DNA of 24,000 nucleotides from Chitinophaga agrisoli (GTDB taxonomy: Bacteria; Bacteroidota; Bacteroidia; Chitinophagales; Chitinophagaceae), in assembly GCF_008386695.1 (NCBI RefSeq), contig NZ_VUOC01000004.1:598327-622326 (forward strand), written 5' to 3'. Below the pieces are notes generated by a model. That model was not told the DNA's origin and made no database searches. It saw only the letters and a list, made by a program, of their open reading frames with translations. The translations under genes were made by a program, and so were the position numbers. Of this stretch, positions 4,817-24,000 are shown in pieces (positions within the stretch are counted from its first letter, which is position 1; every line of letters starts with the position of its first letter).

Positions 4817-4855
4817 AAAAAAAATGACCGGGGAACACTGCCCCGGTCATTTTTT
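4817..4855. terminator. bidirectional rho-independent terminator between convergent genes
   Basis: Perfect 10-bp stem ATGACCGGGG (4824-4833) / CCCCGGTCAT (4841-4850) with the 7-nt loop AACACTG. It is flanked by AAAAAAA (4817-4823) and TTTTT (4851-4855). It sits 59 nt after the stop of 4234..4758 (+) and 11 nt after the stop of 4862..5122 (-). Confidence 0.8.
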
Positions 4856-4861
4856 CCTGCT

Positions 4862-5122
4862 TCAAGGCAACCGGTAATAGGGCGTTTGGCACGCATCCTG
4901 GTACCAGGTGCGGGTGGCCGCTCCAAAAGCCGTAGTACAGACAGTACCCGTTACTGAAGGGCCGCAAACATCGGGAAGCGTGGTAAAGGGGAAACACGCC
5001 GCGCCCAGGTTACTCTGTTTGTACCGCCCCTGCAGGAATACTTTGGCTTGCAATTTGACCGTTGCCGAAATACCAGCAACCATAAGACACACGATTAATA
5101 CTCTGATTTTTACATTTTTCAT
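4862..5122 (-). CDS. small secreted 4-Cys protein downstream of the SusC-like gene (possibly DUF6520-like)
   Basis: 86-aa ORF on the same strand as the transporter gene, 180 nt downstream of it. It has a signal-peptide-like N-terminus (MKNVKIRVLIVCLMVAGISATVKLQA). The mature ~60 aa carry 4 Cys (AACFPF, DVCGPS, GTVCTT, QDACQT), and the strong terminator follows immediately. The resemblance to the Bacteroidota DUF6520 small-protein family is from memory and unverified. Confidence 0.5.
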   Translation of the reverse strand: MKNVKIRVLIVCLMVAGISATVKLQAKVFLQGRYKQSNLGAACFPFTTLPDVCGPSVTGTVCTTAFGAATRTWYQDACQTPYYRLP

Positions 5123-5302
5123 ACTCCAAGGTTTTAAGTATTAGAAAATAAAAGATAACACATGCTATCTGCATCATTCAAATACCACAACGAACATCAG
5201 GCTTAGCCTATACGGCGCCTTGTCCGTCCCGGAAAGAGTAAAAACTGAAGTAGCCAAAGATTAAATAGCGCCTGTGAAACGGTTAGTGATTTCCTTCTGA
5301 TC

Positions 5303-8300: not shown

Positions 8301-8575
8301 TTATTTAAAAGCCATGCTAATGCCTTGTCGAGGGGAACATTTTTGAAGTCAACGGAGATGATTTCATAGCTATCCAACTGTTCATCATTGTAGAATGCCT
8401 GTAACCTGGTTTGTTCCCAAACCGTCTCGAAGAAGTCTTTTATCCTTATTTTCCGGGCTGTGTATGTAATTGTCCGCTCACCAGGAGGAATAACCTGTGA
8501 TTGCGCTGTTAGTGGAATTGCTGTTAGAAAAGCCAGAATGGCTATTATACTGAATTTGGGGATTAGGCGCCGCAT
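5303..8575 (-). CDS. SusC/RagA-family TonB-dependent outer-membrane transporter with N-terminal STN signalling domain
   Basis: 1090-aa ORF with a signal peptide (MRRLIPKFSIIAILAFLTAIPLTAQSQ). An STN-like segment follows (ITYTARKIRIKDFFETVWEQTRLQAFYND...VPLDKALAWLLNKRRLTWSYRRGTFVIFP). Next is a carboxypeptidase-regulatory-like domain (VTGIVCDEKMRPLPGVSVFTDTIGSVTDANGRFKL). The plug has typical blocks (IQGRVSGLYINQTTGLPGGGYNIRLRGRNSI, IASIEVLKDADATALYGTKGANGVILI), and a long beta-barrel region completes the protein. Confidence 0.9.
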   Translation of the reverse strand: MRRLIPKFSIIAILAFLTAIPLTAQSQVIPPGERTITYTARKIRIKDFFETVWEQTRLQAFYNDEQLDSYEIISVDFKNVPLDKALAWLLNKRRLTWSYRRGTFVIFPIKKNSDTALSRIIVAANTRSVTGIVCDEKMRPLPGVSVFTDTIGSVTDANGRFKLADMKRGSILQVRKSGYKPMLLSSYADSISIQLIALVAPLKLIDVSGTQQRQLTASISGVSEKDIETQPASNVLSIIQGRVSGLYINQTTGLPGGGYNIRLRGRNSIESITDPLILIDGVPLPPLLTNNFFEKQKTILQQDVQLIPLANIASSPLNLLSIHDIASIEVLKDADATALYGTKGANGVILIISKTPAPGEQSLTVNIYSGIGQATRFLRLLDSKQYTEMRRQAIRNDGRAASTISDYDILLWDTTKYTDWQRRMIGGTAHITDASLEIKGSRRQLFWRLSGLYRAESTVYPSSQFNYRKGSGRAQLNYSDKKGKIKTAASVSYVADRNILPAVDVTSFSTTPPTTPELYAGGKLNFANDFGNNPYVNFLQKSTEKSSIGQGFIRNTYAPAAGWLINAAFGFNYMKNRQVQVYPMSSFNPKDSMTAYSNFLDNRYQTTMFDASTQWKKQFNNTRVSVLFGTRLFWEHMQQEGVQEYFANDASLYGRSGAIGTLELFKPDSNFRAGSIYARAEVKRNDKYIVTFTASRDNSNRINNQNYSAVYGTVGAAWVFSRERWFNDSSFFSYGRLHGSWGYSGNDQYRERADTSKQIVLMDLLAGFGNSLARAPHAEKIRKAEIAVEMGFLDDKLTGTICYYNNRSWDQLLTAVYSNALNVGIPVNYPAVIVNRGVEVDVAAQWFRSGPLRINSSINISFPDTKLLDFPHIEEQDYRNFYRIGAPLDVALTYGMEGVDAGAGLYKFAYGGSDPQVIQKRPYAKSLVPVFYGGFQNNIVYKGFQLDLLFRFARQNNYNADFGLAPEAPGTMYNQPVTVLDRWQEGGDNVPVQRYTTNTGTVAGRLYKFALLSDKRIAAVNYLRLQSLMLGYQWSDRLLKRMKISSCRLYLQGVNLFTITNYKGRDPELITDEDIYPSLRVMTAGIQLSL

Positions 8576-9293: not shown

Positions 9294-10637
9294 ATGAAAT
9301 GGGAAAAATTACTATCAGCCAAACGTTGGGGAAATGAGGCCAATTACAGCGAGGATCATAATGAAGCCAGATCAAATTTCACAAGAGATTACGACAGGTT
9401 AATATTCTCCTCCCCTTTCCGGAGATTGCAGAATAAAACGCAAGTTTTCCCACTCCCCGGAAGCATATTCGTTCATAATAGATTGACACATAGCCTGGAA
9501 GTGGCAAGCGTTGGACGATCCTTAGGAAACATCTTTTACAATAAGATAAAAACCAGGGACCCTAAAGTCGATGAGTCAGTTCAATTCATGAGCGAGATAG
9601 GAAATATTGTTGCAGCCGCGTGCCTCGCCCATGACCTGGGAAACCCTGCCTTTGGACACTCTGGAGAAGCAGCGATCTCAAGGTACTTTACGGATGGTGA
9701 TGGCAAAAAATACCAAAATACCTTAACCGATAAACAATGGAATGACCTCACTCATTTTGAAGGAAATGCAAATGCATTCAGAATGCTCACTCATCCATAT
9801 ATCGGAAAAGGGTATGGGGCATTCTGCTTAACCTATTCTACGCTCGCATCAATCGTTAAATATCCATGTTCATCAATTGCGGGTCACGACAAAACAAAAA
9901 TAAACAGAAAAAAATACGGCTTCTTTCAGTCCGAAGAAAAGTCGTTCGAAAAGATAGCGGCAGAACTGGGCTTAACAAGAACACAGGAAATCCCCTTGAT
10001 TTACAAGCGCCACCCACTGGTATATCTGGTAGAAGCAGCGGATGACATTTGTTACACAATAATTGATCTGGAGGACGCCCATCGATTAAAAATATTGACA
10101 TATCCTCAGGTCGAAGAGTTATTGTTTCCTCTATGCGAGGATGACAAATTAAGGAACAGACTAGATAACATCGAAGACCTTGACGCAAAGGTCAGCCTTT
10201 TAAGAGCAAAGGCCATTAACTCCCTTGTTTTGGATTGTTCCGAAAAATTCTTTGATAATCAAAATGTAATACTTCAAAGCGAATACAATAAATCACTAAC
10301 TGAAGATTTAAAACCAACATTACAGCCAATATGGGATAATATATGCAAAATATCGAGGGAAAAGATCTACAACTATTCCTCTGTTGTACAAATTGAAGTA
10401 GCCGGCTACAAGGTTATCGGCGGGCTGTTAGAGGAGTTTATACCCGCTCTGATTAACAACAATACTCATTATTATGAAAAGCTCGTCAAGTTAATACCGC
10501 CTCAATTTAAAAGTAAAACTCCCGATACTTATTCGAATATCCAAAGTGTTCTGGATTTTATATCCGGGATGACAGATCTATATGCCGTCGAACTATTTAG
10601 AAAAATAAAGGGTATTTCATTCCCTACTATTGACTAA
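9294..10637 (+). CDS. dgt: dGTPase-family dNTP triphosphohydrolase (HD domain)
   Basis: 447-aa ORF with the family-typical N-terminus: RSNFTRDYDRLIFSSPFRRLQNKTQVFPL, then HNRLTHSLEVASVGRSLG. The HD motif is AHDLGNPAFGHSGE (H113-D114 at nt 9630-9635). A C-terminal DLYAVELFR-type helix is present. Confidence 0.9.
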   Translation: MKWEKLLSAKRWGNEANYSEDHNEARSNFTRDYDRLIFSSPFRRLQNKTQVFPLPGSIFVHNRLTHSLEVASVGRSLGNIFYNKIKTRDPKVDESVQFMSEIGNIVAAACLAHDLGNPAFGHSGEAAISRYFTDGDGKKYQNTLTDKQWNDLTHFEGNANAFRMLTHPYIGKGYGAFCLTYSTLASIVKYPCSSIAGHDKTKINRKKYGFFQSEEKSFEKIAAELGLTRTQEIPLIYKRHPLVYLVEAADDICYTIIDLEDAHRLKILTYPQVEELLFPLCEDDKLRNRLDNIEDLDAKVSLLRAKAINSLVLDCSEKFFDNQNVILQSEYNKSLTEDLKPTLQPIWDNICKISREKIYNYSSVVQIEVAGYKVIGGLLEEFIPALINNNTHYYEKLVKLIPPQFKSKTPDTYSNIQSVLDFISGMTDLYAVELFRKIKGISFPTID

Positions 10638-10654
10638 TTACTCAAACGAAAAGC

Positions 10655-12634
10655 ATGCCTAACGATCCCAGACACCTAACAAAAAGCCGTTTCAAGCTGG
10701 CCCTCGAATGCCCGGCCAAACTTTATTACACAAACAAGCAAGAATATGTAAATAAAAAGCTAAATGATACTTTTCTTCAGGCCTTAGCCGAAGGAGGTTT
10801 TCAAGTAGGGGAACTGGCCAAACTATACTATCCAAACGGGCAAAACGCTGAGGCCCCTGATCACGAAGAGTGCCTCAGGATCACAAATGAGTTATTACAA
10901 CAGGAGAATATAGTAATTTTTGAGGCTGCTTTCCGATTTGAAAATCTTTATATCAGGGCCGATATCGTAATAAAAGAAGGTAATACTCTGCACTTAATTG
11001 AAGTTAAATCCAAATCCTATGATCCCGATACCGATAGCATCACGACATCGAAAGGTTCGATCAGCTCCAAATGGAAGTCTTATATTTATGATATAGCTTT
11101 CCAAAAGTATGTAGCTACCAAATCGTTCCCCCAATTTAATGTGACCGCTTTTCTTTGCCTGGTTGACAAAAGTAAAAATGCTTCCATCGATGGCCTAAAC
11201 CAAATGTTCTTACTATCAAAAAGTGATGGAAGAACCCGGGTAATCGTGCGCAAAACAGAAAACGCTGCCGATTTAGGACAAAAGATATTGATTGAATTAA
11301 ATGTGGACGATATCGTCAATAGCATATTAACGTCTAAAATATTACCGGATAACTTCTACGATAGTTTCGATAACAGAATTGCCTCCTACTCTAAACATTA
11401 TTTCAACGATACAAAGATGGACGCAGCAATTACGGGTCAATGCAAAACTTGCGAGTTCAGCGCCACTTCAAATGATATAGCGTCAGGGCATAAATCAGGC
11501 TTACACGAATGTTTAACAACGATTGCTAAATTTCAAGAAGCTGATTTTGAAAGGCCTCTGTTATGGGATATCTGGTATTTTCGCAAGACAAATGAATTCA
11601 TCCAATCCGGAAGATATTTTATGGATCAAATATCAGCGCAGGATCTGGAAAGCAGATCCACAAAAAAACAGGTTCCAGCCGGGCTATCAAGAGTAGACAG
11701 ACAGGCTCTGCAGCTCGAAAAGGCTGTCTCAGGTGATCACCAACAATTCATCGATACCAACGGGTTGAGGACCGAAATGGATAAATGGACTTTCCCACTT
11801 CATTTTATTGACTTTGAAACCACCGCCGTTGCAATTCCCTTCAATTCCGGACGCAGACCTTATGAGCCAATAGCCTTTCAATTCTCACATCACCAGGTAA
11901 ATAAAGATGGAACTATTGAACATGCCGGAGAATGGATAAATACCCAAGCTGGTATCTTTCCTAATTTCGAGTTCATTAGAAATTTAAAATCCCAGTTAGA
12001 GAAAGACGAAGGTACCATTTTGAGATATGGGCCTTATGAGAATTCAATACTAAACTCAATTTATACCCAACTACAAAATTCGACTGAAAAGGATAAGGAC
12101 ATATTAATGGAATGGATTAAAACCGTTACTCAATCTAAAGCGGACAGCGCAGAAAGTTGGCAAGGTAACAGGAATATGGTTGATCTGCTGGATCTGGTAA
12201 AGAGATATTACTACCATCCCTCCACCAAAGGCTCAAATTCCTTAAAAGATATATTACCTGCCGTATTAAATGAAAGTAATTATCTAAAGGAAAAGTACGC
12301 TCAACCGATATATGGACAAACAATCGGGAGTCTGAACTACAAAAAACATTCATGGATCAAGCTAGATGAAGAAGGCCAGGTTATCAATCCGTATGCCCTA
12401 CTTCCAAGGATAATTGACGGCTATAACAACGATACCCTGGACACAATCGCGGTTGATGACGAGGGAGAAATTTCTGACGGCGGCGCCGCAATGATCGCAT
12501 ATGCGAAAATGCAGTTTACAGAAATGACTGATAAAGAGAGAGAAATGATCTCTAAAGCGCTGTTGAGATACTGCGAACTGGATACGTTTGCCATGGTGAT
12601 GATCTGGGAGGCCTGGACTCATTGGTGTAAATAA
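10655..12634 (+). CDS. DUF2779-type protein: N-terminal PD-(D/E)XK (Cas4/RecB-like) nuclease + C-terminal DnaQ/RNase H-like exonuclease
   Basis: 659-aa ORF starting 17 nt after the dgt stop. The N-terminus LTKSRFKLALECPAKLYY is typical of DUF2779. The PD-(D/E)XK core is RADIVIK...LHLIEVKSKS (D103, E116, K118). A Cys set (C in LECP, then QCKTC ... HEC) resembles a Cas4/AddB-type cluster. The Exo-I-like motif is HFIDFETTAVAIP (D386 at nt 11810-11812), and the terminal motif is YCELDTFAMVMIWE. Confidence 0.8.
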   Translation: MPNDPRHLTKSRFKLALECPAKLYYTNKQEYVNKKLNDTFLQALAEGGFQVGELAKLYYPNGQNAEAPDHEECLRITNELLQQENIVIFEAAFRFENLYIRADIVIKEGNTLHLIEVKSKSYDPDTDSITTSKGSISSKWKSYIYDIAFQKYVATKSFPQFNVTAFLCLVDKSKNASIDGLNQMFLLSKSDGRTRVIVRKTENAADLGQKILIELNVDDIVNSILTSKILPDNFYDSFDNRIASYSKHYFNDTKMDAAITGQCKTCEFSATSNDIASGHKSGLHECLTTIAKFQEADFERPLLWDIWYFRKTNEFIQSGRYFMDQISAQDLESRSTKKQVPAGLSRVDRQALQLEKAVSGDHQQFIDTNGLRTEMDKWTFPLHFIDFETTAVAIPFNSGRRPYEPIAFQFSHHQVNKDGTIEHAGEWINTQAGIFPNFEFIRNLKSQLEKDEGTILRYGPYENSILNSIYTQLQNSTEKDKDILMEWIKTVTQSKADSAESWQGNRNMVDLLDLVKRYYYHPSTKGSNSLKDILPAVLNESNYLKEKYAQPIYGQTIGSLNYKKHSWIKLDEEGQVINPYALLPRIIDGYNNDTLDTIAVDDEGEISDGGAAMIAYAKMQFTEMTDKEREMISKALLRYCELDTFAMVMIWEAWTHWCK

Positions 12635-12736: not shown

Positions 12737-15598
12737 CTACTGAGATTCTAAAACATTCGCTCTTTCCCACAATTCTTCGGCGGATACCGCTGGATCAAGG
12801 CCAACATGCTTCATCCATATGGCTAACCATTGAAACATTCGATTCGGACTTTCCAGTCCGTTCTCACCAGTTAACCGTAAACTGCACAACAGGATCGCCT
12901 CCATCATTTTTGACAAATTATCGGAGGACTCTTTCCAATCCTCCACAATTCCAAGAATGGTGCAAAAATTTAACGTCAGGCGAAGATCATTAAATTCTAA
13001 TTTTCTGTGGCCCAACTCATTTATCAAAAGCCAAGCCCATTCTGAAATGGTTCGACCATATGGCGTCAGGCATATTACCTTCATGATATAGAATAATTTT
13101 ACAATAACCCGTCCAGGATCATCCCTAACACACCCTGGGTTGCTCTGTGTTGCAGAAAATCGCACGATGTATTCCAAGATCGAATGTCGAAGATCTACCA
13201 GCGCGTACGCAAACGCCGTTTCATCCAAAGATGGATGGACGGCTATTTCAGGATACTTTTCAATATACATTCCCAAAGTCCAAATAGTACGGCCGATATA
13301 CTCTCCGTGTCCAATATCTTTAAAGCCCTCAATCGTCCTGAAAAAATATGGAAAGCTTTCCAACTCATGGCCAATCTTATAAAGACATCTGGCGTAACAA
13401 TGCAGATTAGCCAATAGATCATCCTTGTAAAAATGTTCCTCCATAAAAGGGAGTATCGCATCAAACAGGACAATAGCTTTCTGAGGCTCCTTCAGTTGGT
13501 AATAAGCCATAGCCATTTCGGCCTTTATATAGTTCGCCTCATGATCATGCATCTCCGAGTCATTATTATTTTTATCTATCTCCACAAGACGTAGGGCTTC
13601 CTCATACAAGACAATGGCGGCTTTGTGATTACCTTTATTACGCTCAAGATTCGCGCGGGCCTTAGTGGCCATTATCCGGATTGAAAGGATCTGCGTGCTT
13701 TGCGCGAGCTCATCTAACTCATCTATAGTCTTCTCCTGTCCTTCAATATCAAACTGTCTTGATTGCATCGACGTCAATCCCAAATAATTATTAGCGGCTC
13801 CTTCAAACTCGCCTAGCTCCAAACTGGCCTGAATCCCCGCCCTATTTAGTATTACTCCATATTCAAAAAATCCTCTTAAAAAACAATATCTCCCTAACAA
13901 ATCATTTATAAGCTGGATGATAACAAGATATTTATTACGCTGCTCCTGGTCCTGATCTGCTCTGGAAACAATGATCTCTTCGCGTGCTATCCGAAACCCT
14001 TCTAAAAGATTAAGCAGCTCTTCATCAATCCATCTAAATATCAAAGCTAGATTTCCGTTATTGCCACCACCGGAAAAGCGCTCACTCACAAACCAACACT
14101 GCCATACTATCTGATTAATGGCTGCATTTCTTAACTGAACAAAACCTGTCGTTTCCAACATTTTTTCTTTTAAAAAAGGTCGAACAGGGTTAGCGACAAA
14201 TATTCTATCCTCTTTAACTTCCACAAAGAAAAATTGCATGAGAACAGCAACGGCAGTAGAAAAATCCGGCACCTGAGTATGAAGCGTTACTAACTTTAGG
14301 TTCAACCCACCAATAAATACTTGCAAATATTGCAAAGTCTCCTTCTGTTCTTCCGTCAATATATCATAAACGGTCGATAGACAGAGATCAAGCGCATTAG
14401 ATTTATCATGCTTATTCAACATAGGTCGTTTGAGCGCCCCTGTCTTTTTCAGTTGCGCTACAACTTCCGGCTCAGATTTATAGAAAATTAACAGTGAAGC
14501 CACAAGCTTCAACGACAGCGGATGTCCACTGCAAAAATCGAGCAACCACCTTGGGTTCCCCCCAATTATCCCCGCATGTCCCACCATCAACGTCTCTAAT
14601 AGTTGAAGGCTTTTTTGCACATCCAGGCCATCCACCGCAACTATTGTTTTGGGATAATCTATAAGTGACAGATCAATCTGGGAAGTCGCTATTATCTTTG
14701 GCGCCTGGGTTTGAGCAAGAAGTGTCCGGATAAATTCTTCTGTCTCGCTCCGTTGATGGATCAACAGTTTCTCCAAACTATCAAATACAAGGACTATCTG
14801 TAGCTTATCAAGGATTTCAAACAGCGAACTGCCAATATGTTCGCCCGTCAAACGAGATAATTGATTAATTAATACAATATTCAGATCATTAACATTGTTC
14901 ACTGTTTCAACATCAATCCATAAGACGTGGCAATCAGCAGGTATACTTTTCAACGCATTTAGCAACAACTCTGTTTTGCCGATGCCGCCCAAGCCCTCAA
15001 TTACTATGAACCGTTTCAGCGAAATCGCCCCGATCAATTCCGCTAGCTTTTCCTCCCTTCCTATAAATACCGGATGTGGGTTAGGGGCTTTAAACATTGT
15101 TCCAGCGTCCAGATCCCGCCTTAGTTGATCGCGCAGTCTTTCTATTAGCCTATCTTTTGTTTCTCGTAGTAACTGCCTTGAAATAACAGCATTATCGGCC
15201 TTAGTATGTTCTTCCTTTGCAACACGCACCAGATTATGATGATGGTGACTCAGCGACTCTGCATATCCTACGATGTGAGCGTTTTCTAAGGGATAGCCCT
15301 TTCCTGTGATTGGGCATTTACCTTGTATTTCTGTTTTCAGATAATCCTCAATATACCTAGGAATAGCTGGCCGCATCTGATCCGGGGCCGACCAGGGTTC
15401 CTTAAGGTACCCGTCAAATTCCAGGAGTTCCTTCTCTACAAAATAATTTTTACCTGCTATTACTTTGGACGCCAATTTCCTGGTATGCCCCAGGTTCAAC
15501 TTAGGAGCATTTCTCACATAGGCATATAATAACTCTTTTGTAATCCCCAAAAAAAGGGCGGCTTCTGTGTCATTTAATAACTTCTCTATAGCTTCCAT
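12737..15598 (-). CDS. STAND NTPase (NB-ARC-type P-loop) with N-terminal HTH and HNH-like nuclease module and C-terminal TPR/helical repeats; Avs-like antiphage candidate
   Basis: 953-aa ORF. Residues ~10-30 form an excisionase/MerR-like HTH (TEAALFLGITKELLYAYV). The Walker A motif is IVIEGLGGIGKTELL (G202-T209, nt 14972-14995). The Walker B motif is IVLVFDSLE. TPR-like repeats lie in the C-terminal half (e.g. HKAAIVLYEEALRL, AMAYYQLKEPQKAIVLFDAILP, LHCYARCLYKIGHELESFPYFFRTIEGF). Confidence 0.85.
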   Translation of the reverse strand: MEAIEKLLNDTEAALFLGITKELLYAYVRNAPKLNLGHTRKLASKVIAGKNYFVEKELLEFDGYLKEPWSAPDQMRPAIPRYIEDYLKTEIQGKCPITGKGYPLENAHIVGYAESLSHHHHNLVRVAKEEHTKADNAVISRQLLRETKDRLIERLRDQLRRDLDAGTMFKAPNPHPVFIGREEKLAELIGAISLKRFIVIEGLGGIGKTELLLNALKSIPADCHVLWIDVETVNNVNDLNIVLINQLSRLTGEHIGSSLFEILDKLQIVLVFDSLEKLLIHQRSETEEFIRTLLAQTQAPKIIATSQIDLSLIDYPKTIVAVDGLDVQKSLQLLETLMVGHAGIIGGNPRWLLDFCSGHPLSLKLVASLLIFYKSEPEVVAQLKKTGALKRPMLNKHDKSNALDLCLSTVYDILTEEQKETLQYLQVFIGGLNLKLVTLHTQVPDFSTAVAVLMQFFFVEVKEDRIFVANPVRPFLKEKMLETTGFVQLRNAAINQIVWQCWFVSERFSGGGNNGNLALIFRWIDEELLNLLEGFRIAREEIIVSRADQDQEQRNKYLVIIQLINDLLGRYCFLRGFFEYGVILNRAGIQASLELGEFEGAANNYLGLTSMQSRQFDIEGQEKTIDELDELAQSTQILSIRIMATKARANLERNKGNHKAAIVLYEEALRLVEIDKNNNDSEMHDHEANYIKAEMAMAYYQLKEPQKAIVLFDAILPFMEEHFYKDDLLANLHCYARCLYKIGHELESFPYFFRTIEGFKDIGHGEYIGRTIWTLGMYIEKYPEIAVHPSLDETAFAYALVDLRHSILEYIVRFSATQSNPGCVRDDPGRVIVKLFYIMKVICLTPYGRTISEWAWLLINELGHRKLEFNDLRLTLNFCTILGIVEDWKESSDNLSKMMEAILLCSLRLTGENGLESPNRMFQWLAIWMKHVGLDPAVSAEELWERANVLESQ
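15191..15322 (-). other. HNH-like nuclease motif region inside the STAND protein (residues ~93-136)
   Basis: The sequence is GKCPITGKGYPLENAHIVGYAESLSHHHHNLVRVAKEEHTKADN. H108, N122 and H131 have HNH-like spacing (14 and 9 residues). Only one Cys is present, so the usual CxxC zinc ligands are missing. A run of four His (H118-H121) precedes N122. Confidence 0.5.
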
Positions 15599-15645
15599 AG
15601 CTTAAAAATTATACCCCCAAAATAATCGTCATTTTCCCGTATGCT

Positions 15646-15653
15646 CAAAGTTA
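15646..15653 (-). promoter_or_regulatory. candidate Bacteroidota -7 promoter element (TAnnTTTG) for the STAND gene
   Basis: The plus strand reads CAAAGTTA, which is TAACTTTG on the minus strand. It lies 48-55 nt upstream of the ATG at 15598. I found no convincing -33 TTG, and this is a single short motif. Confidence 0.3.
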
Positions 15654-16131
15654 GTAGACATAGGTGTCTGTTGGTCATATATAAAATTTTTACCTGACTA
15701 TATATACGATTGAGTATCCAATACGGATTCACGGGCAGCAAAATACCTCCGTCTGAACTTTAATAAGCTTCCCCAACCTCACCGCGTTAACAACTAATTC
15801 ACATTTAAGTCCCCCAAATAATTGTATCCTTGCTGCCGCGTCTTGTTCCACACTTTTCAGGAGTACAGTGATAGTTAAAGAGAATAAGGAACTGACCACG
15901 TAAACCAATCGCTCATATTATGTTCACGTTACGCTTCGAACTCAAAAAACCTCGCCGCAGATCTACTTCGGAACTCTTTACACAAAGAATTTAATACGAT
16001 TTTATCTCCAGGCAAGCGAATGTAAACTTCCCGTTATGTGAATCTCATGTGAAAACAGGGTTTTCAGCGATCATTATTACTATATAGGAACCACGTATAA
16101 AACTAACCAAAACAATCAACAACACCGCGTT

Positions 16132-19100
16132 ATGGCAAGGATCATAAAGCCCCCCTATTTTGAATCGGTTGTAAATGCCGGAGAAAAGCGCCTGCTTGAT
16201 TACCTGGAGGTAAACCTCCCGGACAGCTTTTACCTGGTGCCTAATGTGGAGATCGCCTCCACCAATCCCCGTAACAACCGTATTCAGTATTGGGAGTATG
16301 ACCTGTTGGTCGTTAGCCCGCATGCCATTTATAATATAGAGAATAAGGACTGGAAAGGCCGTATAGAGGGAGATGACAACTATTGGTATATAAATGACCG
16401 CCAGCGCCAAAACCCGTTGAAGACCGGGAGGCAAAAAACAGCCGTCTTAACCACCCGGCTCAGAGAGCAGGATTCCTCCTGGGGGAGGGCATGGATCCAA
16501 AACATGGTCACGCTGTCTTATCCAAACACGTTTACCCCGTCCTTATGGCAGGAAGCCGGCCGGCTCAGTTTCCAGCTCAATGAGCAGCTGATCAGCTTTC
16601 TGACAGACCCCGCAAATGTGGGTAAAACAGAAAATGATATTGCAGACATTTACAGGGATATTGTAAAATACCTGGATGGTAGCCTCAGCAAAAAAGCGCC
16701 GGATGCAAAACGGGAGGTAGCAGGGTATGAAATAATAGAAATATTGCAGCAGGAGCCCAACTTCACGGAATACCTGGTAAAACCCAAAGGCGTGATCTCC
16801 TCTATTCAAAAAAGAGTAAAAGAATACTCTTTACAGGTAGCGGGCCTCTCACAACAAGCGCTCCTCCGGCGGGAAGAAGTTATAAAGAACCAGTATAAGG
16901 CCCTGCACAAGATCAAGGCAAAACCTTTTATCCTTAATGTGGAGTTTAAAATAGATGAAGAGAACCACCTGTTTTACGAAATATCTGATTTCCTGGATGA
17001 GAATTCCCTAAGGGCGGAGGCCAGGTCTAAAACATTCACCTTCCAGGAAAAGATCGGCATTCTCCGTAATATAATGGCCGCCCTGAAGGAAGCCCATAAG
17101 GAAAACATCTTCCACCGGGATATTAACCCGGATAATATCTATGTGATCAGCGGTTATGCCTATCTGGGGAATTTTGGAAAGTCTTACTTTACGGATCATA
17201 ACCACCAGGGGTATACGGTAATGGCCACCATCAACGAATCTAATGCCACCCCCTATCATCCATTGGAGTTAACGGTTGGGAATGCATCCCGCGCCTCTGA
17301 TATCTATTCGCTGGGGGTGCTCGCCTATTGGCTTTTTGTGGGCGAAGAACCATTCAATACCCCTTATGATCTTGACAGGATGGGTGGAAAGCTGTCTATA
17401 GATAAACTACCCTCTTCCCTTAACAAGGCTTTGCCCAAATGGCTGGATGAGCTGTGCAACCAAACCATTCTCACGGATGACCTGAAGCGGATTGAAAGCA
17501 TTGAAGCAGCAGAAATGCTGATCGAAGAATCTTTAAAAGAGAATGATAGCCTCGCTCCTACCCCACCAAATCCCCCCATCATTCAAACGTCTTCCATAGG
17601 CGCCTATGATCTGAAGGTGGGCGATAAGATAGGGGATTATGTTATTCATCAGATCTTAGGTAATGGCGGGTACTCAAGGGTCTTTAAAGTGAAACACCAG
17701 TTACAGGGGAAATATTATGCGTTAAAACTCTTTCATGAAAGTGTGAACGCAAGTTCCGTTATTGATGAATATAATGCCCTGGTAGGGTTAAGTCATCATA
17801 ATATAGTCCGGTTTGTATGGAATGGCGAAACGCCCAACGGACAATTTTATACATTGATGGAGTTCCTGGAAGGGGAAAACCTGAGTACCTACTCAAAAAC
17901 GGACGCCAGGCTGCCCATTTACAGGGTATATCAGCTGGCCAGGGATATCCTCAGCGCGCTCACCACCATGCAGCGCCTTGCCAAGCCCATCCTGCACCGG
18001 GATATAAAACCCCAGAACATTATCTGGGACAGTGAAAAACGCTTTGTGCTGATAGACTTTAATGTGGCGTCTTTTGTTGATGATAACCGGGACTTTGTAG
18101 GCACCAACCCCTACCTGGCGCCAGATCTTATTACCGATGGCTATAAAGTGAACTGGGATAAGTCCGCAGATACTTTTGCCCTGGGCATTACGCTCTATGA
18201 GCTGGTGTGCAAACAATACCCCTGGGCGCCCAAGAAAATGCCGGCCATGAGCATTGCCCCCATCCATCCCCGGGAATGGGAGCCCCGCCTGTCCACCGCT
18301 TTTGCCGCATTCCTGAACAAAGCGGTGAACCCAAGATCGGCGGAGCGGTTTCCCAACGCCCAGGAGATGCTGAACGCCCTGCTGGCCATTGGGGAAGATG
18401 ATATCATGCAGGAGCCCGGCATACCCGTGCCTTCCATAAAGACCCGGGATAATGAGGGGAATTTCATTAAATATCTTAACTCCCTGTTTAGCCAGTCCAA
18501 AGCGGGGAACTTTGGCACCCGGGCGAGCGAAAACATCAGCGGATTTGATAAGCTTACCTACACCGCGTCAAAACTGGATAAGAAGCTGCTGCCGGATATA
18601 CTCGCCGGCAAATACAAGCTGGTGATCATTACCGGCAACGCCGGAGACGGTAAAACGGCTTTTATTAAACGGATAGAACACGATCATTCCATAAAAGACC
18701 TCCGCCTGCACCACCATAAAAACGGCGCACAGTTTAAGATAGGCGGGGTGCCGTTTGAAAGCAATTATGACGGATCGCAGGACGAGCTGCAACAGGCCAA
18801 TAACGAGGTGCTGGAACGTTTCTTCAGCCCGTTTTCAGATCTGTCAGATTATAATAATGCCGCTGAAGGCAGGATCATCGCCATCAATGAAGGGCGCCTG
18901 GTAGAGTTCCTGAAAACCACCAATAAACATAGGTTCCTGCATGATACCATAGAAAACTATTTTTATAACGAAGGGCATCATGAGCTGCCGCCCGGTTTGA
19001 TGATCATTAACCTTAACCTGCGGTCCGTAGCCGCCCAGGACAGCCAGGAGCCCAGCCTGTTAAGAAGCCAGATCAAAGCGCTCACCAATAAAGAGCGCTG

Positions 19101-20274
19101 GCATAAATGTGATAGCTGCGCTTTGGCGAAAAAATGTTTTATCCGGTATAATGTCGCCTCCTTTAATGACTCTGCCGCAGGTGAAGAGGTTATTACGCGG
19201 ATGGAATGGCTGCTTAGAACCGCCAGTTTTAAACGGGAGCTGCATATTACCATGCGTGACCTGCGCTCGTTTATTGCGTATACCCTTACCAGGGACCATG
19301 AATGCGCGGATATTGAAACGCTGCTCTCCAACACCCAGACAAAACCGGAGCATTACTGGCAATATTATTATTTTAATATCACCAACCCATCCGTTGACGA
19401 CTCGGGCAACCAGGACAGGCTCATAAAACTGCTACGGGAAACAGATATTGGCGAGGTAGCCATCCCGGACCGCGACCGTGACCTGTTCTTTAGCCATCAT
19501 CAGTCCAACGACTACCTGGAGTTCTCTGACCGGGGATCAAGCCTGATCGATGAGTTCAATCAAAATAAGATCTGGGGGCCGGCACATGAGCAAGACAGCG
19601 CACTGATACAAAGGATCCGCACCAACCAGAAAGTATTTATCCGCCATCAGTATTTTGAAGGAAAATCGCAGCTGCTTTCTGTGGAAAACGGTTATGCATC
19701 CGCCGCCACCGATTCCTCCGAAACCATGTTCTCCTCCTACCTGCTTAGATTGCCCTACCACTCCGTTTTTAAATTTGTACGGGTGCTGGCACAGGGGGAT
19801 GACGGCGCCTATACCAAATCCAGTATTTCAAGAGCGATATCCCTTAATGAAGGATGCGACAACCGGGGCATAGATAAGGACCACCTGGTACTGGCGTCCA
19901 CGGATATCCGGGACCCCTATAGCAAATCTTTCAGGTTATTTGATCTCAACGATTTTGAGCTGTTTGTGAACAGGACCGATCACCTGGTGAAATACCTGGA
20001 ATATGCGCCGGACAGCCTCACCTTCCGGCACAGATCGCAAAAGCATATTAAACTGACCATTTCCCTTGATCTCTATGAGATGCTTTATTTTATTCAGCAG
20101 GGCTTTAGCCCCTCATTAAATGACCTGAGGGGGAAATTCGTGGAATTGATCATTTTCAAAAACCTGTTGGAGAACCTGACTTATAAGGAAGTAGTAGTGA
20201 CCAGTGACAATATGGATTTTTTCCGGATCAGCAAAGACGGGAGCCGTCTTTACATAGCACCAATGCAAGCATAG
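16132..20274 (+). CDS. 1380-aa multidomain protein: NERD nuclease-like domain + degenerate kinase-like domain + canonical Ser/Thr kinase domain + C-terminal P-loop NTPase module (PglW-like head; DptF-like tail hypothesised)
   Basis: This is the longest ORF in the window. The motifs are listed under the four domain features below. The stop TAG at 20272-20274 lies 2 nt before the next ATG. Confidence 0.9.
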   Translation: MARIIKPPYFESVVNAGEKRLLDYLEVNLPDSFYLVPNVEIASTNPRNNRIQYWEYDLLVVSPHAIYNIENKDWKGRIEGDDNYWYINDRQRQNPLKTGRQKTAVLTTRLREQDSSWGRAWIQNMVTLSYPNTFTPSLWQEAGRLSFQLNEQLISFLTDPANVGKTENDIADIYRDIVKYLDGSLSKKAPDAKREVAGYEIIEILQQEPNFTEYLVKPKGVISSIQKRVKEYSLQVAGLSQQALLRREEVIKNQYKALHKIKAKPFILNVEFKIDEENHLFYEISDFLDENSLRAEARSKTFTFQEKIGILRNIMAALKEAHKENIFHRDINPDNIYVISGYAYLGNFGKSYFTDHNHQGYTVMATINESNATPYHPLELTVGNASRASDIYSLGVLAYWLFVGEEPFNTPYDLDRMGGKLSIDKLPSSLNKALPKWLDELCNQTILTDDLKRIESIEAAEMLIEESLKENDSLAPTPPNPPIIQTSSIGAYDLKVGDKIGDYVIHQILGNGGYSRVFKVKHQLQGKYYALKLFHESVNASSVIDEYNALVGLSHHNIVRFVWNGETPNGQFYTLMEFLEGENLSTYSKTDARLPIYRVYQLARDILSALTTMQRLAKPILHRDIKPQNIIWDSEKRFVLIDFNVASFVDDNRDFVGTNPYLAPDLITDGYKVNWDKSADTFALGITLYELVCKQYPWAPKKMPAMSIAPIHPREWEPRLSTAFAAFLNKAVNPRSAERFPNAQEMLNALLAIGEDDIMQEPGIPVPSIKTRDNEGNFIKYLNSLFSQSKAGNFGTRASENISGFDKLTYTASKLDKKLLPDILAGKYKLVIITGNAGDGKTAFIKRIEHDHSIKDLRLHHHKNGAQFKIGGVPFESNYDGSQDELQQANNEVLERFFSPFSDLSDYNNAAEGRIIAINEGRLVEFLKTTNKHRFLHDTIENYFYNEGHHELPPGLMIINLNLRSVAAQDSQEPSLLRSQIKALTNKERWHKCDSCALAKKCFIRYNVASFNDSAAGEEVITRMEWLLRTASFKRELHITMRDLRSFIAYTLTRDHECADIETLLSNTQTKPEHYWQYYYFNITNPSVDDSGNQDRLIKLLRETDIGEVAIPDRDRDLFFSHHQSNDYLEFSDRGSSLIDEFNQNKIWGPAHEQDSALIQRIRTNQKVFIRHQYFEGKSQLLSVENGYASAATDSSETMFSSYLLRLPYHSVFKFVRVLAQGDDGAYTKSSISRAISLNEGCDNRGIDKDHLVLASTDIRDPYSKSFRLFDLNDFELFVNRTDHLVKYLEYAPDSLTFRHRSQKHIKLTISLDLYEMLYFIQQGFSPSLNDLRGKFVELIIFKNLLENLTYKEVVVTSDNMDFFRISKDGSRLYIAPMQA
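16153..16506 (+). other. NERD (nuclease-related) domain
   Basis: GEKRLLDYLEVNLPDSFYLVPNVEI...YWEYDLLVVSPHAIYNIENKDWKGRIEGDDNYWYIN shows the D...E-x-K arrangement and the 'copy number / new-event' layout typical of NERD domains. Confidence 0.7.
16717..17530 (+). other. kinase-like domain 1, predicted degenerate (pseudokinase-like)
   Basis: The catalytic loop HRDINPDN (H328) is intact and the subdomain IX block SDIYSLGVLAYWLFVGEEPF is present. There is no Gly-rich loop (EIIEILQQEPNFTEYLV), and the DFG triplet reads NFG (N347-F348-G349, nt 17170-17178). Confidence 0.7.
17605..18393 (+). other. kinase domain 2, canonical Hanks-type Ser/Thr kinase
   Basis: The Gly-rich loop is LGNGGYSRVF (from L509). 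The VAIK-type Lys is in YALKLF (K532). The catalytic loop is HRDIKPQN (H622). A DFG-equivalent DFN is at D642-N644, and an APE-equivalent is in NPYLAPD. The block ADTFALGITLYELVCKQYPW is also present. Confidence 0.85.
18490..20271 (+). other. C-terminal P-loop NTPase module with CxxCx5C motif
   Basis: The Walker A motif is LVIITGNAGDGKTAFI (G835-T842, nt 18634-18657). A possible Walker-B-like strand is RIIAINEGRL. The Cys motif is C993-x2-C996-x5-C1002 (HKCDSCALAKKC, nt 19108-19137). The remaining ~380 aa have no motif I recognise. Confidence 0.6.
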
Positions 20275-20276
20275 TT

Positions 20277-21836
20277 ATGGGCATAAAATTAAACAGGGAT
20301 GAGACCTCGTTCCGCAATGAACTGATCTTCACCGCGGACGCAAAGGCCGTAAATATAGACAATACGCTGGTGAACCTCTATATGCTCCTGAAGCACAATG
20401 GGATAAGACCCAAACAGCGGTCCGGGGAAAAGAACAATTCATTCGTGGACCTGGAAACATTGAAAGTTGTTTTCTCCAAACTGGAGGAAGAAGGCGCTAT
20501 AACTGGATTTAGCAGCAACCCGGAGGCCGCCGAGCTATGGATGCGCAGCAATCTCGTAAACATGGTGTATAGGGGGAACCTGGATAAAGAGAAGATCTCT
20601 TCCCTAAGACCCATTCACCTGGAGAGCTATAGGGTTAGAAATGCGGCCAATACGAGGGACTACAATACAGCCGACCAGGTTTACCTGATGCTGAACGCCA
20701 ACCCCGCTGTAAGGGAAGAGCTAAAACAGTTCTTAATGGAAGGCTGGAACCAGGCCACCGGCGAGATCACTGCCGGATCTGAACTGGATGTGGACAGCCT
20801 GGGCTTGCTGCACATCATCAAAAAAGTTAAACAAGGTTTCCTGGACAGCAGCTCCAGCCTGAACCAGATCCGGCCGCTGCTGCATGAGCTTTCTGAGCTT
20901 TATTGTGACGATGTAAAAAGATTGCTGGTCTATAAGCGATTAATACCCAGGAATGTGTTGATCGACTATTTTAAGACCCTCACCTCGTTCCATCTCTCCA
21001 TTTACATGCAGAAACTGATCTATACGCTGCCTCAAATGGTGGAATCAGGTTCTGATGCGGCGAGGGCGGACTGGAATATAGTTGTGGACGCCACGGATAA
21101 TTTTGAAAGCAAAGTGGCCCGTATTTCCGCGGGTGATGCGGAGGCGCTGAGCAATAATATGTATGATTATATTAAATCCACTTTCCAGATCAACGCCGCA
21201 CTGAGAAGGTTAAAATTGGACAAAAACAATTCAGACCATCTTGCCAAGGCCCTTCGCATCCTGAAGGACAAACCACAGGATTTTGAAATATACTTTGAGA
21301 CCCAGTGGGATAACCTGTATAATATCCTGAATGAAGAAGATAAAGCGCCGATAAATGATATTGTGAAATATGAGGCCACCTATTTTGACCGCTATATTGA
21401 ACTGATCCTGAAAGCGAGAAGCGCCTACCAGTTCCGCTATCATATGCAGCTGCTTGACAACCTGTCTCAAAAGAATAATGAGCGGGGTTTTATTGCCCAG
21501 GGCCGCAGCAGGAAACACCCCAGGAGGTATGTGATGGGCACCCGGTTACTGGAAACACTTGTTCAGATACTGGTCCTTGAGCCGGATGGGGCCGGATTTC
21601 AGACAAAAGTGCTGGCCATAGAAGACCTGATCCAGAAGATCAGGGAACGGTATGGGCTCATCATCAATGGCCTGTCTGAAGAGCGGTTCAAAGACGCCAA
21701 CCTTAACACACACCTTGCATTTAAGGAAAATGTGGAGGCATTCAAATTAAAACTCCGGCAAATAGGATTCTATAACGATCTAAGCGACGCCTATATACTT
21801 CAAAGAATAAGACCCCGCTACGAACTAAATGCTTAA
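20277..21836 (+). CDS. 519-aa protein of unknown function, second gene of the kinase operon (DptG-like position; unverified)
   Basis: The ORF starts 2 nt after the upstream stop. Composition and codon style match the flanking genes. I saw no catalytic motif. The conserved-looking C-terminus is RYVMGTRLLETLVQILVLEP...IRERYGLIING...QIGFYNDLSDAYILQRIRPRY. Confidence 0.8.
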   Translation: MGIKLNRDETSFRNELIFTADAKAVNIDNTLVNLYMLLKHNGIRPKQRSGEKNNSFVDLETLKVVFSKLEEEGAITGFSSNPEAAELWMRSNLVNMVYRGNLDKEKISSLRPIHLESYRVRNAANTRDYNTADQVYLMLNANPAVREELKQFLMEGWNQATGEITAGSELDVDSLGLLHIIKKVKQGFLDSSSSLNQIRPLLHELSELYCDDVKRLLVYKRLIPRNVLIDYFKTLTSFHLSIYMQKLIYTLPQMVESGSDAARADWNIVVDATDNFESKVARISAGDAEALSNNMYDYIKSTFQINAALRRLKLDKNNSDHLAKALRILKDKPQDFEIYFETQWDNLYNILNEEDKAPINDIVKYEATYFDRYIELILKARSAYQFRYHMQLLDNLSQKNNERGFIAQGRSRKHPRRYVMGTRLLETLVQILVLEPDGAGFQTKVLAIEDLIQKIRERYGLIINGLSEERFKDANLNTHLAFKENVEAFKLKLRQIGFYNDLSDAYILQRIRPRYELNA

Positions 21837-21840
21837 CGGA

Positions 21841-24000
21841 ATGCAACAGACAACGCAGATAAATACCTATTATAAACGGATCATTGACCTGATACTGGAG
21901 CTGTATCATGATGATCTGAGCAAAGCTATTCCAGGCCATTGTATGAAGATCACCGGATTGGGCCTGCATGAGCTGGAATTCCTATGGGAACTGATCCGGA
22001 GCAAATACAGCAATATCAATACCTTTATCATTGGCGAACAATCCACCGCTGATGAAAGGTTTATCACCGCCACCAAACTTATTGAATTAAGGAATAAACA
22101 AGACGCGCCGCTGTTAGTGCTGGTGCCATCCAATAGCCGCACATCCGCGGAAGACTCCTATGGAAATGCTACATTCAAAGAAATATCCCTGGAGGGCATT
22201 GAGCAAAGACTAAGGGAACAACTGATCAATAATATTCCCCTGGAATTTTCCGCCATCCTGAAGAACGAGATCCTGGGATCGCTTAATATGTCGCAGGTAG
22301 ACCCGGTGAACGTTGTTAACTACTTACTTTCCCTGGAACAAACAGGATATTCAACAACCTCCATCGGCAACCAGCTGTATCTCCTGAACCTGTTGCCGGA
22401 CGCCGCATTATTGCTGCAGCACGATAAGATACGATCCCGACTGAACTTCAACAATAAAAGCACTACGCTGCTGGCCACCTTTCATAAGCCGCTGTATGAC
22501 CGGATTGCCGAACTGCCATTGGAATCCAACTCGCTTCAGAAAGAGCTGGTAACATTCCTGAAGACTGAAAATAATGCCAGGAGTGCAGCCGATATATGCC
22601 GCATTGTGTATCAACACTATCCTAACCTGAATTTTTCCAACTGGCAGATCCCTGACCTGGATTTCCGGCATATCAAACTTTTTGCCGAAGAGATCAGGTC
22701 CGTTGATTTCTCGCAGGAGGAAGGCCGGCAGGTGCTTAAAGCGCAGGAGCGTACTTCTACTAAAGTAAGGGTAAGATTCTCTATGAGTCAAAACCCTAAA
22801 GAGATCTCCGGCCTTGCCTATTTTAAGGTGATCCTTATGGCGGTGAATGGCGGCGCCGGCGATGAGATGCAGGTAGTACGGAAGATCAAGAACTCCACAT
22901 CCAACAAGCCCTACCGGGATGTTACCGTGGAGCTGAACCCGAATATGATGGAAGAAGGCTCCTATTTCTTTAAAATATGGGCGGAGGACGAGCATGGCAA
23001 TATACTTAACAGCGATGATGATTTCAAAGAGCCTAAGATCCAGGCCGCCTGGAAAGAGGCGAAAGAAAAAAACAGCGCTACCCTGAAAAGCGCTTTCGAC
23101 TATAAACTTACCAGCGACACCAGCGATTTTGATTATGTGGTGGAAGAAAATTCCGAACGGGAAGAAAACCAGCGGAAGGACAAACTGAACAATATACTCC
23201 AGGCTTTCTTCAAATTCCGGATCGAGAAAATAAAATCAGAGGGAGAAACGGAAACGCCCAGGCCCTCCGAAACCTCCAACCTATGGATCACAGACCCGTC
23301 AAAACATACGTCTACTTTCCATATCAATTATTCAGACAGGCATAACTACCAGGTGAACCTGTCTTCCAAATTGCGGATGATAGAAGACCTGTTCCTAAAG
23401 AACAAGGAATGTTTTGGATGCATAAAAGTGCATCTCAGGAACAGCTCATCCGCCATAGGATTTGAATCCATGAGCTTCATCGCCAGCGAGATCTCGTCCC
23501 TTATACCCAAAGAGATCATCGCCCTCCGGAGCGGCATATATACCCGGATCCAGCAGTCCAACGCTGCCGGAAACGGCGTTTTAGAAACGGCTGATATCTT
23601 TAATTTCCCGGACCTGATCAGCGAATATATTCAAAAGCTCACGGAGTGGACCACGGGGCTGCAGCTGCAGATCCTGGAAGCCGATAAACAGGACGCTGAA
23701 CAACCCAGCATCCAGGACCTGCTGGCAGCAATACAGATGCTTGACCTGGTGAAGGTTAAAACAAAACTGCCGGATGGTAAACCGGTGGAGGCATTTTTAC
23801 TGTCTCCGCTTCACCCGCTGCGGTTAGCCTGGTGGACTGAACTGATGGACGTTTTTGCGGCATGGGAAACGCGCACACAAGGTTACCCGGGCTATAAGGA
23901 ATCCTGGTCCAAGGGATTGGCCAACTTATTTGAAGGCCAGCTTACGCCGGAGAACAACCCGCTGATCTTCGTTGAGCCGGGTACGTTTAAGGCGTTCCAT
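21841..24000 (+). CDS. large protein of unknown function, 3'-partial (more than 720 codons, runs off window); third gene of the kinase operon (DptH-like position; unverified)
   Basis: I translated frame 1 by hand from ATG 21841 to nt 24000 and found 720 codons with no stop (MQQTTQINTYYKRIIDLILELYHDD ... LSPLHPLRLAWWTELMDVF ... FVEPGTFKAFH). An in-frame ATG at 21829 would overlap the upstream stop (ATGCTTAA). The ORF is absent from the supplied track, presumably because it has no stop in the window. No Walker A motif occurs in the visible 720 aa. Confidence 0.8.
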   Translation, partial: MQQTTQINTYYKRIIDLILELYHDDLSKAIPGHCMKITGLGLHELEFLWELIRSKYSNINTFIIGEQSTADERFITATKLIELRNKQDAPLLVLVPSNSRTSAEDSYGNATFKEISLEGIEQRLREQLINNIPLEFSAILKNEILGSLNMSQVDPVNVVNYLLSLEQTGYSTTSIGNQLYLLNLLPDAALLLQHDKIRSRLNFNNKSTTLLATFHKPLYDRIAELPLESNSLQKELVTFLKTENNARSAADICRIVYQHYPNLNFSNWQIPDLDFRHIKLFAEEIRSVDFSQEEGRQVLKAQERTSTKVRVRFSMSQNPKEISGLAYFKVILMAVNGGAGDEMQVVRKIKNSTSNKPYRDVTVELNPNMMEEGSYFFKIWAEDEHGNILNSDDDFKEPKIQAAWKEAKEKNSATLKSAFDYKLTSDTSDFDYVVEENSEREENQRKDKLNNILQAFFKFRIEKIKSEGETETPRPSETSNLWITDPSKHTSTFHINYSDRHNYQVNLSSKLRMIEDLFLKNKECFGCIKVHLRNSSSAIGFESMSFIASEISSLIPKEIIALRSGIYTRIQQSNAAGNGVLETADIFNFPDLISEYIQKLTEWTTGLQLQILEADKQDAEQPSIQDLLAAIQMLDLVKVKTKLPDGKPVEAFLLSPLHPLRLAWWTELMDVFAAWETRTQGYPGYKESWSKGLANLFEGQLTPENNPLIFVEPGTFKAFH

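Follow-up and report, generated by a model that had tools for sequence, protein, structure and literature searches.

The antiviral STAND proteins Avs3 and Avs4 (8dgc, 8dgf) are single chains, each with an N-terminal nuclease, a central STAND module and a C-terminal TPR-like sensor, and they occur in defence islands. Among the systems related to DNA modification, SspFGH, SspE, DndI and PbeABCD have been described (PMC8092258, PMC9646914, PMC11662687 and PMC10853773). SspE and DndI, nickases of the GmrSD type, each combine an NTPase and an HNH nuclease in one protein encoded beside the phosphorothioate (PT) modification genes; DndI is a DUF262+HNH protein which is co-transcribed with dndFGH yet acts alone with the modification genes (PMC11662687). 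Neither sspE nor sspFGH accompanies 83.9% of sspBCD clusters (PMC8092258). The gene described here lies at 12737..15598 on the minus strand of a 24,000-nt stretch of the Chitinophaga agrisoli genome (contig NZ_VUOC01000004.1; the whole stretch is referred to as the window), and its 953-aa product has features in common with both groups.

The predicted architecture has the same order as Avs3 and Avs4, which are among its structural matches, but the effector differs. Theirs is a Cap4/Mrr-type PD-(D/E)xK nuclease, whereas in the window family a helix-turn-helix (HTH) precedes a putative HNH domain, and the window protein is about half their size. With SspE and DndI it would share the pairing of NTPase and HNH, and the place of family members after sspFGH is like the operon position of DndI. 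The proteins are not homologous, however: SspE and DndI are built from DUF262 (DGQQR) and DUF1524, the window family has a STAND module, an N-terminal HNH with an HTH and a large repeat sensor, and neither Pfam GmrSD_N nor GmrSD_C matches the STAND–HNH protein. With moderate confidence, we read it as an NLR-like (STAND) immune nuclease formed by one chain, from a family not described before, which would serve FGH-type modification-based systems as an accessory or a backup. Alignments, predicted structures and gene neighbourhoods make evident what this reading builds on, ie the arrangement of domains, catalytic and NTPase motifs which are intact, likeness of fold and linkage in the genome. These features suggest two new elements, an undescribed effector module and a specific association with PT-type systems in a STAND immune nuclease. 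The resources searched contained no account of a STAND/TPR/HNH gene accompanying SspFGH, PbeABCD or DndFGH, which is not proof of novelty.

Predicted domain anatomy of the STAND–HNH protein

The open reading frame (ORF) runs from ATG to TAG, and its product is 100% identical to the deposited 'hypothetical protein F0L74_21620' of Chitinophaga agrisoli. Approximately 78 full-length homologues were found at 27-63% identity, mostly in Bacteroidota but also in other phyla, and in some sources they are labelled 'TPR repeat protein' or 'McrA/TPR'. Since both the deposited match and the full-length homologues agree with it, sequence comparison identifies 12737..15598 as a real gene and not a chance ORF. 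Conservation was determined on an alignment of 37 full-length homologues, to which the invariant residues given below refer. The direct Pfam matches were all sub-threshold (bits/cut-off: nSTAND1 24.9/27.1, NB-ARC 18.0/23.5, HNH_2 13.6/21, HTH_17 14.9/27), and for that reason the domain calls rest on the family alignment, on relatives and on structure prediction. The AlphaFold2 (AF2) model of the full-length protein has a pLDDT of 85.1 and a pTM of 0.71; the corresponding values for residues 1-172 modelled separately are 91.2 and 0.84.

Residues 7-66 (15401..15580, minus strand, as for all domains below) are predicted to form a winged helix-turn-helix of the excisionase/MerR type. The AF2 elements are a strand at 7-9, helices at 10-17 and 21-29, a β-hairpin at 45-54 (strands 45-47 and 50-54) and a helix at 55-66. 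Pfam HTH_17 matches this region weakly (E 0.034), Foldseek returned BldC (6ama) and the excisionase RdfS (8dgl), and A13, G18, T20, L23, L24 and W69 are invariant, as are P77 and P80.

The putative HNH (ββα-Me) nuclease domain follows at residues 81-136 (15191..15358). Its ββα unit (β104-108, β123-127, α128-135) is modelled with a pLDDT above 90 and places H108, N122 and H131 where HNH catalytic residues are expected. Conservation and model together give the signature of ββα-Me nucleases, ie a ββα fold in which β1 ends with a His, together with an Asn and, on the helix, a further His. C95, H108, H118, N122, H131 and D135 are invariant in 37/37 homologues, and H118-H121 directly precede N122. 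An earlier note on this DNA, made from the sequence alone, had placed H108, N122 and H131 exactly, had rightly noted one Cys and four consecutive His (C95 is the sole Cys in residues 1-175, H108 is in AHIV 107-110 and HHHH is at 118-121), and had allowed that the first 170 residues might bear no likeness to a nuclease fold. When the model of residues 1-172 was compared with the PDB using Foldseek, the top matches were all HNH nucleases, namely EcoKMcrA, the CBASS protein Cap5, the HNH domains of Cas9/IscB, ScoMcrA and TagI; the E-values are modest (from 6e-3) and the probabilities 0.9-1.0. Cap5 superposes on the model with a root-mean-square deviation of 3.3 Å over 102 columns. A sequence search of the PDB with the N-terminal profile gave just insignificant matches to IscB HNH (E 0.29-1.8). 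Relatives sharing the head (N-terminal profile E 1e-21 to 1e-28) score 24-36 bits with Pfam HNH_2, compared to 13.6 for the window protein. Taken over the family alignment and the predicted fold, the HNH assignment of the N-terminal head is well supported.

There are two HNH sub-clades in the family. The window clade has one Cys (GKCPITGKG … NLVRVAKEEH), and the structural Cys4 zinc site (CxxC…CxxC) was not found in it, C95 alone being kept. The sister clade (P0064-P0078) has 4-5 Cys, with CxxC…CxxC in the aligned columns (C-A-L-C-G … L-C-T-D-C-H). Because the sister clade carries the motif at the same columns, the window HNH derives, by alignment, from a canonical HNH with zinc and is itself zinc-less. 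HNH_2-type enzymes commonly have no Cys4 zinc site. The HHHH run is kept in both sub-clades, and its conservation in the zinc-bearing clade as well means that it does not replace the zinc ligands. EcoKMcrA, ScoMcrA and Cap5 have the same ββα-Me core and the same arrangement of β1 His, Asn and helix His. The window clade differs from them in having C95 in place of a Cys4 site and a conserved HHHH before the Asn, and in what its HNH is fused with, an HTH of the excisionase type where theirs have SRA, a sulfur-binding domain (SBD) or SAVED.

A long helix at residues 141-165 (15104..15178) is predicted to join the effector to the NTPase. The P-loop nucleotide-binding domain (NBD), residues 175-325 (14624..15076), is modelled with five parallel strands. 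Its Walker motifs are exactly those of the earlier note, GLGGIGKT and VLVFD; they lie at 202-209 (K208) and 269-273, with G202, G205, G207, K208 and D273 invariant in 37/37 homologues; T305-S306-Q307 is conserved, and Q307 is also invariant. Helical (ARC-like) and winged-helix subdomains would occupy residues 326-480 (14159..14623), as helices 327-386 and 399-455 and a hairpin at 459-468, with a GxP motif, G358-H359-P360, in which G358 and H359 are invariant. The modelled order of helical domain, winged-helix domain (WHD) and solenoid matches the STAND plan. The sub-threshold Pfam matches in the NBD are to nSTAND1, NB-ARC and AAA_16, the NB-ARC alignment spanning 194-411. With the full-length model, Foldseek found the STAND-TPR protein PH0952 (6mfv, E 4e-12), Avs3 (8dgc), Apaf-1, CED-4, plant NLRs and Avs4, and the family profile (hmmsearch) matched PH0952 (E 6.5e-22), AfsR (8k60, E 2.5e-8) and the nucleotide-binding oligomerisation domains (NODs) of plant NLRs. 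No protein matches the NOD and TPR parts better, by structure or by profile, than PH0952 from Pyrococcus, which has the same order of NBD, helical domain, WHD and TPR. However, PH0952 and the AfsR/MalT-type STANDs contain no nuclease and act in signal transduction or transcription, whereas the window family would have an HNH as its output and lies in a defence context. By its motifs and predicted fold, the central module is an NB-ARC/nSTAND1-like STAND NTPase.

Residues 486-952 (12743..14143) are modelled as continuous helical hairpins, an all-α solenoid which would be the TPR-like sensor. The family profile matches canonical TPR proteins at approximately 640-800, and Pfam TPR finds one segment only, 645-673, below threshold. 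Alignment, AF2 and Foldseek bear out the architecture proposed in the earlier note (HTH, zinc-less HNH, STAND NTPase, helical/TPR sensor); its helical/TPR sensor stands but is approximately 470 aa long, not 600, because residues 327-480 belong to the STAND module, as its helical and winged-helix subdomains. Mean pairwise identity is 0.54-0.59 in the HTH/HNH, 0.29 in the connecting helix 141-165, 0.40 in the NBD and 0.29-0.30 in the solenoid. The effector is thus the best-conserved part and the solenoid the least conserved and fastest-evolving, a gradient which is the pattern expected of an arms-race sensor.

Linkage to modification-based defence

Thirty-nine metagenomic loci were retrieved with the N-terminal alignment, and all loci were scanned with hidden Markov models (HMMs) built from annotated neighbours. 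For counting, STAND proteins at least 95% identical were collapsed and a flank of at least 3 kb was required, giving 33 non-redundant informative loci. A scan of genome contigs with the full-length alignment was dominated by the generic Walker A pattern and recovered four true family loci; 49 unrelated STAND loci from the profile scan of genome contigs served as the control, using the same HMMs.

PT, BREX or MADS genes lie within 10 kb of the family gene in 29/33 of the informative loci, and SspBCD in 19/33, compared to 0/49 for PT/BREX/MADS genes in the control (Fisher p 3e-18, an overstated value since the loci are related). In look-ups of seven homologues, Ssp-type genes adjoined six, the neighbours being DUF4007/SspB, an SspC of approximately 1100 aa, the PAPS-reductase SspD and the cysteine desulfurase SspA. 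Across the loci the linked systems are SspBCD, SspFGH, PbeABCD, DptGH and BREX. The linkage spans both HNH sub-clades, many gene orders and proteins just 27-45% identical; it is strong and evolutionarily persistent, and it is to FGH-type, PbeABCD and BREX modification-based modules. The earlier note, correct on architecture, had missed this part of the context, which is the strongest signal. Its alternative of a biosynthetic setting found no example, all the loci examined being defence loci.

The STAND–HNH gene is often the last gene of these operons, whose key members were confirmed with curated models. In L087 (L numbers denote loci) SspF, SspG and SspH score 782, 718 and 2430 bits, and the STAND gene lies 61 bp downstream on the same strand. 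In loci of the L058 type, sspA, PbeA (1047 bits), PbeB, PbeC and dnd_assoc_4/PbeD are followed by the STAND gene after 20 nt, and in L077 it comes after a PglZ-like gene and BrxL (421 bits). In L002 and L065 it immediately precedes sspB in the same orientation. DptFGH without Ssp stands beside family members in L078, L084 and L094; DptH and DptG are convergent with the STAND gene both in L078 (1198 and 280 bits) and in L094 (DptH 682 bits). L072 has an SspH-like protein and dnd_rel_methyl (424 bits). Orientation to the neighbours varies, ie operonic, convergent or divergent, and several loci are on conjugative or integrative elements with genes for a type IV secretion system coupling protein, a relaxase or an integrase. 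Upstream gaps of 8-69 nt are found in L054, L056-58, L060, L077 and L087, and gaps of this size follow sspH, pbeD, brxL and an 820-aa gene described below; such short gaps indicate probable co-transcription. The exceptions to the linkage are L054, L079, L003 and L004 (short contig ending inside the gene).

A protein of approximately 820 aa is encoded directly upstream of the STAND–HNH gene (gap below 10 nt, or overlap) in L056 (7527-9992), L064, L066, L068, L069, L071 and L079. It has zero matches in Pfam, NCBIfam or PADLOC; in L066 its gene follows sspA, and it may be an unknown partner. In L094 a GmrSD gene (13044-14858, minus strand; DUF262 + DUF1524, DndI/SspE-like) is located between the STAND–HNH gene and dptH, so that a single DptFGH module is accompanied by a pair of unlike NTPase-HNH proteins.

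The HTH–HNH head also occurs outside the family. Its profile found 1022 proteins among 1.84 billion cluster representatives and, besides the STAND architecture of approximately 950 aa, the head is fused in two other ways. Firstly, a proteobacterial family which is widespread and has members of approximately 500 aa (P0223, P0247, P0346 and relatives) joins it to zinc-finger repeats of the DnaJ type (CXXCXGXG). These proteins pass Pfam HNH_2 (24-36 bits vs 21) and are annotated as 'zinc finger domain-containing protein' or 'HNH endonuclease'. Their neighbours in L100-L102 are Gabija-like GajA/GajB genes or insertion sequence elements, and PT genes were not found there; this small sample of three loci argues against the head being PT-linked by itself. 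Secondly, a further STAND family (P0079-P0085, eg P0081) has NB-ARC, canonical TPRs and a C-terminal SEC-C motif. It passes Pfam NB-ARC (25.0 vs 23.5) and shares the head at 48% identity over residues 7-248, ie through Walker A, with no likeness beyond. Judged by these alignments, the head is a portable module subject to shuffling, and it is reused in at least two other undescribed architectures. Phage sequences gave zero matches, and the sole match in a plasmid search was a DnaJ-type relative.

The Chitinophaga locus

In the window the STAND–HNH gene is transcribed divergently from the gene which starts at 16132, across a 533-bp intergenic region (15599..16131). The earlier note had this gap and orientation right and called the neighbours a kinase operon; by NCBIfam they are the MADS core mad6-mad7-mad8 (16132..24000, plus strand), each above its cut-off. 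The mad6 gene (16132-20274; MAD6 769 bits vs 460) encodes NERD, two kinase domains and a P-loop C-terminus; by PADLOC the MADS-core region is PglW-like. It is followed on the same strand by mad7 (20277-21836; MAD7 649.5 bits vs 410) and by mad8 (from 21829; MAD8 235.6 bits vs 175), which runs off the window. Experiments have shown MADS to be a defence system of eight genes, with MAD6-8 as its mandatory core (bioRxiv 10.1101/2023.03.30.534895). The original survey placed it in Proteobacteria, Actinobacteria and Nostocales only, and the Chitinophaga window extends the MADS-core genes to Bacteroidota; mad1-5 were not found upstream of mad6 in the window.

The PADLOC SspH model cross-matches mad8, one MAD8 homologue carries the label DptH, and DndF proteins fused to NERD and kinase domains have been described, together with a HerA/FtsK-type DndH (PMC10853773). 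For these reasons, and on sequence criteria, mad6-8 is an FGH-type restriction module related to DndFGH and SspFGH. The STAND protein was rejected as a subunit of its immediate MADS neighbour since it matches no mad model in PADLOC or NCBIfam and mad7/mad8 occur in none of the other 40 non-redundant family loci, the window being alone among 41. In L059 (1-783, minus strand) a 1514-aa protein combines a ScoMcrA-type sulfur-binding domain with NERD and two kinase domains and is MAD6/DndF-like; its gene comes directly after sspB-C-D-A, approximately 9 kb from the STAND–HNH homologue, and it looks like a PT-linked counterpart of mad6 in the window. A 195-aa ORF (22408-22995, minus strand) wholly inside mad8 on the opposite strand is without family matches and is almost certainly spurious.

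The STAND gene has a G+C content of 0.41-0.42, like the left flank (0.40-0.42), and the MADS genes 0.47-0.50. A scan of the flanks, including 15599..16131, for consensus promoters and terminators gave nothing above shuffled expectation, the consensus used being one that excludes Bacteroidota promoters. To the left (9294-12634, plus strand) are a dGTPase gene, matching the housekeeping-type model PRK01096 just above cut-off, and after 17 nt a gene for a 659-aa DUF2779 protein, for which PADLOC gave zero matches. A DUF2779 gene is also found directly after the STAND–HNH homologue in L076 (3806-5293). Further left (3164-8575), an anti-sigma fragment resembling FecR (4234-4758) and a TonB-dependent receptor of the SusC/RagA type (5303-8575, minus strand) are ordinary Bacteroidota nutrient-uptake genes and form the left edge of the defence region.

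Possible roles of the family

The trigger, oligomerisation, DNA cleavage and backup relationship that we propose are modelled on STAND biology (Apaf-1, MalT/PH0952 and Avs3/4) and on HNH enzymes activated by oligomerisation, of which Cap5 is an example. At rest, the sensor would hold the ADP-bound NTPase shut. An infection-derived ligand on the solenoid would open the switch, and ATP-dependent oligomerisation would then gather the HTH–HNH heads on DNA, held by the winged HTH. The heads would cut the DNA, and either the phage DNA would be destroyed or the infection aborted. The most plausible trigger would be a product of phage attack on, or evasion of, the partner systems, such as an anti-restriction protein. 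We read the family not as a free-standing Avs but as evolutionarily tied to SspBCD with SspFGH or PbeABCD, to DptFGH, to BREX and here to mad6-8. Since these partners use different marks, PT in some and methylation in BREX and MADS, while the HTH is highly conserved, a guard or backup is favoured over a reader of one mark. The linkage also leaves room for a mechanism coupled to epigenetic self/non-self marking, in place of plain Avs logic.

Several observations count against this reading. Every direct Pfam match misses its gathering cut-off, PADLOC 2.0 has no model matching the protein at E ≤ 1, and NCBIfam 20 has no family model for it (the Avs4 model, with its cut-off of 1500, gives 18.8 bits). 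PT genes are absent within 10 kb of the closest homologue (63%, in L054), which has just a TIR-TM gene on its upstream side. In the window the STAND gene is divergent from mad6-8 and not in their operon, and its G+C content differs, so that the local coupling is positional only. The metagenomic loci are not phylogenetically independent, and the Fisher p overstates the significance. Finally, the tight placement after SspFGH or PbeABCD would fit a true subunit, or an effector dependent on PT, just as well.

The last of these is the alternative which fares best, though we consider it rather unlikely. The protein would be a PT-coupled restriction effector, a functional analogue of SspE and DndI. 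Its HTH–HNH head would scan DNA. On self DNA, the host PT mark would trigger NTP hydrolysis on contact, and the STAND switch would stay off, whereas unmodified invader DNA would leave it ATP-bound, oligomeric and nucleolytic. It could then be one of the missing restriction partners in the approximately 84% of sspBCD clusters for which none is known (83.9% in PMC8092258). Such a role is consistent with the presence of SspBCD within 10 kb in more than half of the informative loci, and with occasional positions immediately before a sspB of the same orientation, or last in sspA-pbeABCD and sspFGH operons. There are precedents for single NTPase and HNH proteins that sense PT in SspE (PMC9646914) and DndI (PMC11662687), the N-terminal module is the best-conserved part, and the PT-dependent HNH enzyme ScoMcrA is among the structural matches. 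However, members also stand beside BREX (L077), DptFGH without Ssp (L078, L084 and L094), MADS (the window) or no modification system (L054), and a single conserved HTH would hardly recognise marks as different as these. The ScoMcrA sulfur-binding domain gives no sequence signal in a Pfam scan at E ≤ 10, a fast-evolving solenoid of approximately 470 aa is typical of protein-ligand sensing, and the same head with DnaJ-type zinc fingers has no PT genes nearby (L100-L102, three loci only).

An ordinary Avs-type protein, which would sense some conserved phage protein by itself and have no functional link to the PT/BREX/MADS systems, is unlikely, too; its neighbourhood would then reflect only co-travel in defence islands or integrative elements. 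The tripartite architecture fits, Avs3 and Avs4 are among the structural matches, orientation to the neighbours varies, the gene is an apparent single-gene unit in the window and L054, and several loci are on conjugative or integrative elements. The linkage nevertheless holds over 27-45% identity, in both HNH sub-clades and through rearranged gene orders, and none of the unrelated STAND loci shows it; gaps of 8-69 nt after sspH, pbeD, brxL and the 820-aa gene suggest co-transcription. The term Avs-like, used in the earlier note, holds for the plan of effector, STAND and repeat sensor. Membership of a described Avs family does not follow from the sequence, and the term is an analogy, because of the NCBIfam Avs4 score and the lack of a PADLOC match. 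These searches covered NCBIfam Avs4 and the PADLOC models, Avs6-21 of PMC13581612 lying outside them. The 2026 survey of Avs families mentions neither HNH nor Ssp, and PT/BREX-type linkage is not reported for Avs in it (PMC13581612).

A MalT/AfsR-like STAND regulator of the adjacent defence operon, with the HNH-like fold as a mere DNA-binding scaffold, is very improbable: the NOD profile matches AfsR (8k60) and the MalT-like PH0952, the HTH would bind DNA and divergence over 533 bp is a classic regulator layout, but H108, N122, H131 and D135 are invariant in 37/37 homologues, the sister clade keeps its structural zinc site, Pfam finds no OmpR/BTAD or LuxR domain although the NOD does resemble AfsR, and the gene is often last in an operon rather than divergent, with no biosynthetic context in the loci examined. 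A regulator of the SARP/LuxR type was rejected, the HNH being intact and the context defence.

If the guard or backup reading, or the PT-gated alternative, is right, the family could be the first example of an NLR-like (STAND) immune protein built into self/non-self discrimination by DNA modification, as a PT-gated nuclease or as a guard of FGH-type machines; this wider claim is tentative. The conserved STAND–HNH gene is a concrete candidate for a missing effector or a second-line guard. In the PT-gated version it would be one of the 'missing' restriction partners of orphan SspBCD, and in the guard version it would sense phage sabotage of SspFGH, DptFGH, MAD6-8, PbeABCD or BREX. The zinc-less and zinc-bearing sub-clades would provide a natural experiment on the role of structural zinc in ββα-Me nucleases. 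Either version would join two large branches of prokaryotic immunity which have been treated apart, NLR-like pattern recognition and epigenetic self-marking.

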